DNA of 64,000 nucleotides from Eledone cirrhosa. Lineage: Eukaryota. Below the pieces are notes generated by a model that saw nothing but the letters and a program-made list of their open reading frames with translations, was not told the origin of the DNA and made no database searches. The position numbers and the translations under genes were made by a program. Below, one piece after another: positions 24,101 through 30,100 of the stretch (positions within the stretch are counted from its first letter, which is position 1; each line of letters starts with the position of its first letter). Where the stretch lies: the NCBI GenBank assembly GCA_964016885.1, contig OZ024755.1, forward strand, positions 26,908,001 through 26,972,000, read 5' to 3'.

Positions 24101-27100
24101 AGCTTACAGTTATGGTGTTATTGACTAAGAACTGTCTATGTCTTCTTTGTTCTTTTAAAAACACTAAAGAGAGAATGCTTGCTACACTATACAGTATAGT
24201 GATAGCTCAATGACATTTCATAGCTTTTTTTTTAATACATTTTATTGAATTTGTTTTATTTCTGAAAATTCTGTTTTTAATTTCAGAAGAATTTCCATTG
24301 TTGATATAGTTCGCTATATTGGTATTTGGACTGGCATAGACTACGGAAGATTGAAATATATCTATATAGATTTAGCAAAGGAAGATATTTGGGTGTGTAT
24401 GATAAAATTTATGCTTGATTTTGCATCAGTTAACCCTTTAACATTTATATTACTCTATATATAAAATATTGTATTTTTGTGGTAAACACTTTATTGTACA
24501 TAATTATCTAACATAATATTGAATCTATGAGATTTTTATATTATTTATTTTGAGAACAATACTTTAACATCAGTATGTGTGGCCAGTTACAGACAGTTTC
24601 AACAGAAAGAGGTGAGAGAATTCTGGGTGGATTAAATGCTAAAGGGTTAAACTTTTAGTAGTTTTATAGTAATGATGATAATTAATTATTTGTATTTTTG
24701 TATTTGTATCATTGAATAGTCACCAGTTTAGCTGTTAAATAATATTATGCCATCTAATAATAATATCAACAACAATAATAATAATAATGATGTATTTTGT
24801 TGGAGCAGGAAAGGTATGGTTTGTTATATCAATAAATGTAAGTTGAATTGAGGTTTGGCCGTAAGTCTCAGGTTGTGTTGCTGCTGTGATAATAACTCTG
24901 GAAAGAATCTTTCCATATCACATTTAAAGGCAATGGTTGTGGTAAATAGCATCACAAGACTTTACAATGTTTTTTACATATTTTATTTACAAACCGATTA
25001 CAAAGATTGAGCTGAGTTGAGCTGGCATGTCAAAACAAATTAAGAGTTTAGAAGGTACGGTCAACTGGCTGAGGTGTTGGCCAGGCCTGTAGTTATGTTG
25101 TTGTCATTACATTTTGGCTAGTGGTTTCACGGCAAAAGAAGAATGGTGTTTACCTTTCCACGATTAAAGCTGCAAGAGACAGAATTTATCGAAAGTAGCT
25201 GGAAAATTTCAGTTTAGGCGGAAGTTAAAAATACATATCCGTGCGTGGCTCACAATTGGCTTGACTTAGCCAAATCATGCACGAATAGCCTATCAGTGCG
25301 CCAAAGGAAAGTATCTTGCTACAAACTTTACTAATGGCTATATCCTCCTAAGATCAGACCTACCCGGTTTATTCTAACCATAATCTACTATTAACTTAAA
25401 TACTATCTACTATCAATCTTTTCATAAACTACAAATTTATCTGAATTGTTATTGGATAGTTGGGCTAAATACTGCCCAGTTTAACACTACTATCTGATCC
25501 TTGGTTAACTTCAGCAGAGTTAACTCTGTTACAGAGATTCAGATTAGAGAGCTCCAGTTCTTTCCCTGCTCACATTTTTCTGCAGACATTGACAGACAAA
25601 TGGACAGGTTTGGACTGCACAATTTTACCAATGGTTTGCTAAAGAAATAACCACTCCCTCTCCTCTGATAACATACTGTATATACTTGTATATAAACTGA
25701 GAAATATGTTAGAAAAAAATCAATGGAAAAATGGGGGGGGGGTCATAATCCGGCTGATTTAAAAGTAGAAATAAGTATTTAAAATTAAATATTTTATTTA
25801 TTTTTTTTTTTTTTTTTGGTGATTTATATGTCTTTCTGTTTGTTTTTTCAGCTGACATTGATGAAAATCAATAAATGGCTGGAATACAAAGAAAAAAAAA
25901 GGGAAGAAAAGGAGGCTGAAGAACAAGACACTGCAGGAAAAGACACTGCAGGAAAAGATACTGCAGGAAAAGACACTGCAGGAAAAGACACTGCAGGAAA
26001 AGACACTGCAGGAAAAGACACTGCAGGAAAAGACACTGCAGGAAAAGGCACTGCAGGAAAAGACACTGCAGGAAAAGACACTGCAGGAAAAGACACTGCA
26101 GGAAAAGGCACTGCAGGAAAAGACACTGCAGGAAAAGACACTGCAGGAAAGGGCACTGCAGGAAAAGACACTGCAGGAAAAGACACTGCAGGAAAAGACA
26201 CTGCAGGAAAGGGCACTGCAGGAAAAGACACTGCAGGAAAAGACACTGCAGGAAAAGGCACTGCAGGAAAAGACACTGCAGGAAAAGACACTGCAGGAAA
26301 AGACACTGCAGGAAAAGACACTGCAGGAAAAGGCACTGCAGGAAAAGACACTGCAGGAAAAGATACTGCAGGAAAAGACACTGCAGGAAAAGACACTGCA
26401 GGAAAAGACACTGCAGGAAAAGACACTGCAGGAAAAGGCACTGCAGGAAAAGACACTGCAGGAAAAGACACTGCAGGAAAGGGCACTGCAGGAAAAGACA
26501 CTGCAGGAAAAGACACTGCAGGAAAGGGCACTGCAGGAAAAGACACTGCAGGAAAAGGCACTGCAGGAAAAGACACTGCAGGAAAAGATACTGCAGGAAA
26601 AGACACTGCAGGAAAAGACACTGCAGGAAAAGACACTGCAGGAAAAGACACTGCAGGAAAAGACACTGCAGGAAAAGGCACTGCAGGAAAAGACACTGCA
26701 GGAAAAGGCACTGCAGGAAAAGACACTGCAGGAAAAGACACTGCAGGAAAAGACACTGCAGGAAAGGGCACTGCAGGAAAAGACACTGCAGGAAAAGACA
26801 CTACAGGAAAAGACACTGCAGGAAAAGGCACTGCAGGAAAAGACACTGCAGGAAAAGACACTGCAGGAAAGGGCACTGCAGGAAAGGGCACTGCAGGAAA
26901 AGACACTGCAGGAAAAGACACTGCAGGAAAAGACACTGCAGGAAAAGGCACTGCAGGAAAAGACACTGCAGGAAAAGACACTGCAGGAAAAGGCACTGCA
27001 GGAAAAGGCACTGCAGGAAAAGACACTGCAGGAAAAGACACTGCAGGAAAGGGCACTGCAGGAAAAGACACTGCAGGAAAAGACACTGCAGGAAAAGACA

Positions 27101-30100
27101 CTGCAGGAAAAGGCACTGCAGGAAAAGACACTGCAGGAAAAGACACTGCAGGAAAAGACACTGCAGGAAAGGGCACTGCAGGAAAAGGCACTGCAGGAAA
27201 AGGCACTGCAGGAAAAGACACTGCAGGAAAAGACACTGCAGGAAAGGGCACTGCAGGAAAAGACACTGCAGGAAAAGACACTGCAGGAAAAGACACTGCA
27301 GGAAAAGGCACTGCAGGAAAAGACACTGCAGGAAAAGACACTGCAGGAAAGGGCACTGCAGGAAAAGACACTGCAGGAAAAGGCACTGCAGGAAAAGACA
27401 CTGCAGGAAAAGACACTGCAGGAAAGGGCACTGCAGGAAAAGACACTGCAGGAAAAGACACTGCAGGAAAAGACACTGCAGGAAAAGGCACTGCAGGAAA
27501 AGGCACTGCAGGAAAAGACACTGCAGGAAAAGACACTGCAGGAAAAGACACTGCAGGAAAAGGCACTGCAGGAAAAGACACTGCAGGAAAAGGCACTGCA
27601 GGAAAAGGCACTGCAGGAAAAGACACTGCAGGAAAAGACACTGCAGGAAAGGGCACTGCAGGAAAAGACACTGCAGGAAAAGACACTGCAGGAAAAGACA
27701 CTGCAGGAAAAGGCACTGCAGGAAAAGACACTGCAGGAAAAGGCACTGCAGGAAAAGACACTGCAGGAAAAGACACTGCAGGAAAGGGCACTGCAGGAAA
27801 AGACACTGCAGGAAAAGGCACTGCAGGAAAAGACACTGCAGGAAAAGACACTGCAGGAAAAGGCACTGCAGGAAAAGACACTGCAGGAAAAGGCACTGCA
27901 GGAAAAGACACTGCAGGAAAAGACACTGCAGGAAAAGACACTGCAGGAAAGGGCACTGCAGGAAAAGACACTGCAGGAAAAGGCACTGCAGGAAAAGACA
28001 CTGCAGGAAAAGACACTGCAGGAAAAGACACTGCAGGAAAGGGCACTGCAGGAAAAGACACTGCAGGAAAGGGCACTGCAGGAAAAGACACTGCAGGAAA
28101 AGACACTGCAGGAAAAGACACAGCAGAAAAGTAAAGTATTTGTCTATTTACCCATCCAACTGTCAGTCTTTATCTCCCACTCTATCTTTCCTTCTTCGCA
28201 CTCACACAAACACATGTACAGGCACACACACATGCTCAGACACACTGATGGATCCCCTCAAGGTAGACTTCTCATGCATTCTCCTCCATTCACCATGGCA
28301 TTTCCATGCTACTTTCTGTTCAGCGTCAGTGAGGGGAAGCATGCCATTATCATCTCAGACACACTTCTCCCTAACATCATCACAATTTTCTCTGACACGC
28401 TACCTCACAATCCTGAACACTTCACGTCTTTCATCCTTATGTCACAAAACATGCTTAATTTTTTTTATTTTCTGCTTTCTTCCTAGCAAAGTATACTTGT
28501 TGCCTAACTTCTCTCCTAGCTTCCCAGTGGTATATTCTGCTTCCCCCATCTTGCCATTTTTCCATGCCTGTCTCTTGGTCTTAATTGTTTCATATATATA
28601 TATATATAATTGTCAGGTCACTCTTGAGTGCTACTGGTAGCATGTAACCCAGTATAACCTGTCGCATGGTCAGGTCATCGGCGACTAAACCAGCAACCCC
28701 ACCAAGTTTACTTGGTGAGAAGGGTGATTTGGGACACCCTGCAGGACAAAAAAACAAAACCTATCAAAGGGTGGAAGAACTCATAAGAGTCAACAGCCAT
28801 CCAAAAGTGTGATAATATGTATATACAGTATGGGTGTGGGGGTGTGTAGGATTGATTCACATTTGTCTGTGTATATATGTGTATATATTTGATAAACAAA
28901 TTAAAAAATCCTGCTAAATCAATGGGTGGCAGTAGTTCCAGCTGCACGCATTGAAAGACCGATGTAGTGGTTCTGAGAAAAACCCAGTTGATGGATGTGA
29001 ATCCGAAATGTATAGGGACTATTAAATCTCTCCCAAGGTAACACTCTCTCTATTGTTGTTATTTTTATTTTTATCCTTTTACTCTTCCCTCCATTCTAAA
29101 CATCTCACACATCTTATACACACCACGCATCTCAACGTACACCCACTTACATCTCTCTCTCCACAACCGGACCTTGTTACCCGGAGATTTACCCATTTGC
29201 ATTGTCGAGGCTTCCAAACGACTTATAAATATAATATATATCAAATTAAAAATCTGAGTTAAAGACTCACATTAATCTCCTATGATATAATGAGCTCAAG
29301 GAATTGATTCCAGGCTTTTTATAAATCAGTATATAGAGAGAATTTCACATAGAGGTATGTGTTTAATCATAGGGGATAAAAAAAAACCCACCAGAGTGAT
29401 GAACATATTGTCTACGAAAGGAATGTTGAATATAGATCAATTAAAAGAATAAATTAAACTTTACAAACTATCCAATGATAACTATTACACCTGGACACAC
29501 TCAAATTAGAATATGTTTCGCCACAAAAAGTGAAGATTTCATATTGCAGAGGGCATGTCATATACTGATATATATATATATATATATATATATAAGGATA
29601 AGATCCCATAACTCCTTGTGGAGTTGTAGACGCACCATATACGGTAAGAAAGTGTAGCTATAATAGTTGTGTTCCTATATGGCCTCACCCCATGGGCTGG
29701 AACAGGTAAAGGAATACAAAAGTATATATGTATATAAGGAACCTCTACATAGTTTTTTGAGCTGCTAAATCTTCCTTAAATCACATCTTAGTGCAGAGGT
29801 TTTCAAACTGTGTTGCAAAATTAAGTCAAATTAAATCAATTTTGACAAATATTTTTCCTGTGAAATATTTCAGATGTGAGAATTTTACATAAAATTAGAT
29901 ATGTAACTGACAACAACATTGTTAATGTTCTTAATTCTGTGTTGTTAACAAAATTTAATCAGTTTGGCATGAAAAATCTTATTTTTAAAAATATGTGTTG
30001 CCAATGTGAAAAGTTTGGAAATTTCTGCTCAAACTTGGAAAGGAGATAAGCTCCACTAGATTTAAAATGACCCAAAATGCTGCATGTCACTCCGGCACCC

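Follow-up and report, generated by a model that had tools for sequence, protein, structure and literature searches.

We analyzed a 64,000-nt window of the 3.0-Gb Eledone cirrhosa genome (OZ024755.1, positions 26,908,001-26,972,000, containing no N), which holds an exon made largely of 147 tandem copies of a 15-bp unit encoding DTAGK or GTAGK. This exon is number 15 of 20 in our model of the gene that carries it, hereafter the host gene. We found that the exon is spliced into RNA on its 5' side and that the repeat unit is confined to this locus. In our judgment the array is probably a young coding minisatellite in a single-copy gene, which would give the protein a predicted disordered linker of 735 residues and is likely tolerated rather than selected. 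The host gene was modeled from a crude splice scan, read by eye, of the window and the 40 kb upstream of it.

Exon 15 carries an in-frame 15-bp array

Exon 15 is 2279 nt long, has a T-rich acceptor and is open in frame 0 over 759 codons. From position 25927, after 25 unique codons, the 147 units follow in register: 100 encode DTAGK (81 + 16 + 3), 45 GTAGK (44 + 1) and one DTTGK, and the last is a degenerate DTAE. All 145 scored units are 15 nt long. An earlier note on this DNA had described a 2.3-kb exon of this build behind a strong acceptor, with no frame-breaking indel in the array and no GT ahead of its donor; the 15-bp register is kept throughout, and the first GT after 25852 is indeed at 28131. 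It had also placed a PstI site in each unit, which holds for 145 of the 147, and had called the array a polyampholyte. The charge is mixed (146 Lys versus 103 Asp or Glu, 102 of them Asp), yet the 734-aa array is net basic (+43, or +0.06 per residue; isoelectric point (pI) 9.6).

The units differ by four distinct substitutions, two silent and two residue-changing, the commonest of which (45 units) loses Asp. All 16 units that end in AAG have a Gly unit right after them, indicating a copied two-unit block. No run of unit types longer than 11 units recurs (longest run in shuffles: mean 9.7, maximum 16). Over 25927-28116 the units depart from the consensus 66 times, and 62 of these departures are A-to-G changes at two positions; these are genomic, amount to two events, and no link with RNA editing is claimed.

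The array is not a chance product. The lack of GT in the unit and its open frame are nevertheless unremarkable, because among 20,000 shuffled units 72% had no GT and 59% also had an open frame. In the other two plus-strand frames stops are located before the array. We considered a protamine-like product read from the RHCRK frame and rejected it, as a stop precedes that frame and no separate acceptor was seen.

In the host gene model all introns are GT-AG, the phases are consistent and the 20 exons form a single 1249-codon frame, with in-frame stops ahead of the ATG. The predicted protein is ~129 kDa, of which the array (residues 379 to ~1112) is 67 kDa, and repeats make up 59% of the protein; the array-free protein would be ~519 aa with a pI of 5.2. 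Five GT-AG exons downstream of the array hold the frame in matching phases to the stop, over 141 codons. The exon before the array ends in phase 0 and the one after it starts in phase 2, as the earlier note had said in calling exon 15 apparently obligatory; a model that omits exon 15 closes at residue 359, six codons past the junction. The description of a small-exon gene also stands, though not the size range of 32-115 nt, since sizes run from 34 to 115 nt for the other 13 exons within the window and from 25 to 131 nt for the six upstream of it.

Exon 15 is joined to exon 14 in an RNA-like contig

Array words were present in three read runs of one study, X1 from sample S1 and X2 and X3 from sample S2, all three lacking an RNA label in their records. 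We compared the contigs of these runs with the window over 23450-25956. X1 is confined to exons and dispersed repeats, whereas X2 and X3 cover introns too, and because of this X1 appears to be RNA. A 1035-nt contig of X1, at depth 89.8, contains exon 14, joins 24392 to 25852 with the loss of 1459 nt bounded by GT and AG, and reaches 25956 within the array. The earlier note had proposed checking this junction in transcripts, and here its two sides are joined in a contig that enters the array. Exon 15 is therefore spliced into RNA on its 5' side. The joint is absent from the listed contigs of X2 and X3. Upstream of exon 14 the X1 contig has 823 letters, versus 824 nt in model exons 2-13, and this length supports the host model in bulk rather than exon by exon.

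The depth of reads can also be used to ask how much of the array is transcribed. The depth of a two-unit array bin divided by exon depth was 182 in X1, 56 in X2 and 22 in X3. Simulated with 31-mer contigs, 147 units gave ratios of 47-216 depending on the overlap rule (47-63 under the strict rule), with a ceiling of ~6.6 per unit. From this ceiling and the X1 ratio it follows that, given even coverage, at least ~28 units are transcribed. Over 25886-25956 the array-to-unique depth ratio of X1 exceeds those of X2 and X3 by a factor of 3-8, for which there are three possible causes: S1 may carry a longer allele, the RNA may be unevenly covered, or contigs may have been filtered.

The repeat unit is confined to one locus

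Minisatellites grow by slippage and unequal exchange. We searched the genome for the exact unit dimer and found 38 matches, all 38 of them inside the array; the monomer gave 81 of 84 inside it, and a reversed control gave 1 match. In addition, the codons ahead of the array match the unit, in register, at 9, 10, 13 and 15 of 15 positions. The unit is thus confined to the array locus and grades into the flanking codons. Since the dimer is absent from the rest of the genome and the unit grades into its flanks, the array likely arose in place. A dispersed minisatellite family as its source was ruled out by the same dimer matches.

Between 25851 and 25956, seven letters of the X1 contig disagree with the window, two of them at 25924 and 25926. 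We modeled single duplications and deletions of 3, 6, 9, 12, 15 or 30 nt, and only an extra copy of the EKEAE 15-mer (~25906-25920) fits, giving exactly seven mismatches. This suggests that 15-nt steps are likely to vary between samples at the array edge. The earlier note had expected the array to be length-polymorphic; what we have is a single indirect hint of this, one extra edge 15-mer in S1, and it concerns the edge rather than the count of core units per allele. Adenosine-to-inosine editing as the source of the X1 differences was rejected, because one of them is a C>A change and a single duplication accounts for all seven.

Predicted product of the host gene

We predicted the fold of the first 200 codons of the array exon with AlphaFold2 from the single sequence. 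A helix was predicted over residues 2-29 and the repeats were predicted as coil, with a predicted local distance difference test (pLDDT) score of 40-45 (about 43). The array is therefore predicted to be disordered, in line with the earlier note, and would act as a passive flexible tether.

Against Pfam, the array matched HC2 (PF07382) at 192.3 bits (cut-off 40), on low-complexity sequence, and we read this match as compositional. HC2 is a small, strongly basic bacterial protein that packs DNA. The array resembles it in having lysine, alanine and threonine at a short period; unlike HC2, it holds 102 Asp, has a net charge of only +43 over 734 aa, sits inside a 1249-aa frame and appears to have arisen locally. 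HC2 identity was rejected, the array being no small, strongly basic stand-alone protein. Pentapeptide-repeat (Rfr-fold) proteins carry a hydrophobic core residue in each unit and fold as a beta-solenoid. They share the five-residue period, whereas the array unit has no large hydrophobic residue and no Pfam pentapeptide match, and no solenoid was predicted. The unit DTAGK/GTAGK, the blank in Pfam and the coil at pLDDT about 43 rule out this identity.

The unique part of the host protein shows weak internal repetition, with 5 of 15 segment pairs at a shuffle p below 0.05 (best 0.001). A G..L.K.DW pattern is common to three exons, each of which ends in phase 0 just after it. The top Atlas clusters, both at 0.85, were UBA_4 (PF14555) for the exon 1 peptide and CUE (PF02845) for the exon 6 peptide, the family being found on 17% and 36% of cluster members, respectively; Atlas scores below 0.9 are leads only. 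The putative modules resemble UBA_4 and CUE in these clusters and in the shared pattern. They differ in that none of the 15 host-exon peptides matched any Pfam family, UBA included (each module is split by an intron), that a PDB sequence search of host peptides gave nothing below E 0.1, and that a cut-off 43-aa exon 1 peptide, folded as a single sequence, came out as beta strands in the best of five models (predicted template modeling score (pTM) 0.40). A UBA/CUE-like identity of the modules is therefore a lead only.

Homologue searches, in which the queries were 41-43 aa or of low complexity and no neighboring gene served as positive control, gave 2 candidates for exon 14 plus six intron codons and 17 for the array exon, none scored, and no candidate for exon 1. 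Exon 3 was searched against 1.84 billion representatives, and its single match, a hypothetical protein, was rejected: it is repetitive, its score adds up over five repeats, and the array-free model did not detect it. Searches of this genome for paralogues of exons 14 and 1 found none. A literature search of titles and abstract openings returned nothing on this gene or array.

How the array may have grown

Our data suggest a course of events for a young, tolerated minisatellite. The unit, restricted to its locus, grades into the flanks at 10/15, 13/15 and 15/15 identity, which would be the trace of a 15-nt duplication in a charged linker. Slippage and unequal exchange may then have amplified it in whole-unit steps, while four point changes spread as a mosaic. 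RNA now appears to include the exon with many units, as seen on the 5' side. Because each 15-nt unit adds five codons and contains neither stop nor GT, every gain would keep the frame and the exon could not shed the array. The predicted outcome is a protein of ~129 kDa in which a flexible chain links a 378-aa N-terminal part, with small repeated modules (the UBA/CUE-like leads), to a C-terminal part of ~140 aa.

Several points weigh against this account. The RNA type of X1 is read from its exon-only cover, in one sample of one study, and the depth ratios, which vary across the three runs, are rough figures and not copy numbers. The junction of 28130 with 30219 is read from phase and the product is a prediction from sequence. 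Five of the seven X1 mismatches have no listed position, so the extra EKEAE unit is a matter of fit. The term 'recent' is drawn from the homogeneity of the units, because the orthologue searches came back empty. Finally, retaining a 67-kDa insert in an expressed gene is costly, which would fit selection equally well.

The last point leads to the alternative that we regard as possible, though clearly less probable: the array may be a selected lysine- and threonine-rich platform or ruler beside modules resembling ubiquitin-binding ones, for example a multivalent modification acceptor or condensate scaffold, with length tuning its activity. It is expressed and kept at 735 aa, UBA_4 and CUE are the first Atlas clusters, at 0.85, for two exons, and none of 145 units is a length variant versus 20 of 78 in an intronic 34-bp array. 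Counted by distinct events, however, the last contrast disappears: this array has 4 substitutions and 0 indels, and five others in the window have 18 substitutions and 3 indels, for which arithmetic gives about 0.5. Two of the four substitutions alter the residue, including the commonest, the Atlas leads are below 0.9, and Pfam gave no UBA family match. We do not take the open frame, the absence of GT or the absence of indels as signs of selection, shuffled units and other arrays being alike in these respects. The fuller form of the idea, a lineage-restricted multi-UBA/CUE-like protein whose 735-residue, 146-lysine disordered array serves as a length-tunable ubiquitin acceptor or condensate platform, with allele length setting activity, seems to us unlikely.

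We give a similarly low chance to the donor at 28131 being unused. The frame would then end at the TAA at 28132-28134 and the array would form a C-terminal tail, or the RNA would not be productively translated. The match to the donor consensus is moderate and the in-frame TAA lies right behind it; against this, the five downstream GT-AG exons extend the frame in the right phases for 141 codons, and they resemble the upstream modules (shuffle p 0.001 in one of 15 pairs). An array that is really short and owes its length to the assembly is very improbable. Among the contigs listed none spans the array, and X2 and X3, a possible source of the assembly, show the lower ratios (56 and 22). The X2 ratio nevertheless agrees with the strict simulation for 147 units (47-63), X1, from the other sample, calls for ~28 units or more, and the unit types follow one another irregularly, as a mosaic in which no long block is duplicated, the longest run of 11 units lying within the shuffle range. 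It is equally hard to credit that most transcripts dodge the array by skipping exon 15 or by using a GC donor near its start. GC dinucleotides do occur at 25878, at 25915 and in each unit, and rare isoforms get dropped from contigs; these sites are poor matches to the donor consensus, skipping shifts the frame, and the one X1 contig that covers exon 14 joins exon 15 and enters the array.

Comparison with human coding repeats

Human protein-coding variable number tandem repeats (VNTRs) offer the closest comparison. A study of such repeats (bioRxiv 10.1101/2021.01.19.427332), which analyzed 118 exon-overlapping repeats, gives ~20-125 units of 60 bp for MUC1 and an 18-bp unit for TCHH, and reports that length affects traits. 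By analogy, the array is built like the human coding VNTRs MUC1, ACAN, TCHH and TENT5A, in that in-frame tandem units within an exon set the size of one protein region. The unit length is a multiple of three, the units are in frame in the exon, and the array is in a spliced transcript (5' side, at least ~28 units). It differs in its 15-bp unit repeated 147 times and in its host, which has no known relative and, by reading of the model, no obvious signal peptide.

If the tolerated minisatellite is the right reading, this would be a very large, clean coding minisatellite near its birth, with the parent codons still adjoining it, and allele lengths and sister species would offer a direct test of tolerated versus selected expansion. 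Gene models can miss such exons, because repeat masking hides them and short-read contigs break at them. Were it true that the modules bind ubiquitin and that array length matters, the protein would represent a tunable scaffold of a new kind.

Table 1. Features of the host gene and of its array exon (window positions unless marked).
Feature	Position	Strand	Basis or remark
Exons 1-6	upstream of window, L001 150-9010	+	model; 25-131 nt
Exon 7	118..185	+	model
Exon 8	1441..1495	+	model
Exon 9	5754..5791	+	model
Exon 10	7584..7650	+	model
Exon 11	16825..16871	+	model
Exon 12	17840..17873	+	model
Exon 13	21787..21848	+	model; the X1 contig has its loose end at the end of this exon
Exon 14, putative first part of repeated small helical module	24287..24392	+	X1 cover, depth 89.8
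Exon 15, holds the array	25852..28130	+	phase 0 in, phase 2 out; 5' junction in X1, 3' junction from phase
25 unique codons; predicted helix ending small helical module, and charged linker	25852..25926	+	AlphaFold2 helix 2-29, pLDDT 64-87
EKEAE 15-mer	25906..25920	+	10/15 identity to unit; an extra copy would account for all seven X1 mismatches
Array, 147 x 15 bp, DTAGK/GTAGK	25927..28130	+	no length variant; four distinct substitutions among units
Only GT donor of exon 15, moderate consensus match	28131..28136	+	putative; in-frame TAA 28132-28134 if unused
Exon 16	30219..30279	+	model
Exon 17	33465..33577	+	model
Exon 18	35061..35121	+	model
Exon 19	36913..36974	+	model
Exon 20, to stop codon	38695..38809	+	model

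Neighboring genes and other repeats

The host gene lies head-to-head with a kinase-like gene on the minus strand (L003:5278 through L004; Pkinase E 0.0005), which we take to be SCYL2. Between the two, L002 is richer in CpG and is a possible shared promoter region. At its other end the host gene is tail-to-tail with a USPL1-like SUMO isopeptidase gene, also on the minus strand (42949-47936; Peptidase_C98 E 3e-10). The long last exon of this gene has an in-frame 36-bp repeat in 3.5-7 copies at 44025-44268, so short coding repeats are found next door too.

An intronic 34-bp minisatellite of ~84 copies (1512-4330) starts 17 bases past exon 8, with stops in all six frames and 32-bp variants; the host gene thus carries a further large array, this one close beside an exon. 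Other non-coding minisatellites of 38-48 bp lie at 30836-31200, 31817-32400, 40751-41634 and 57486-58020, of which the array at 31817 has three open frames but fits no model exon. Minus-strand fragments at ~20100-21700 and 55517-56416, broken by stops, are presumably long interspersed nuclear element (LINE) reverse transcriptase, and we assume from a motif that a broken plus-strand fragment at ~12500-13140 is a Tc1/mariner-like transposase.

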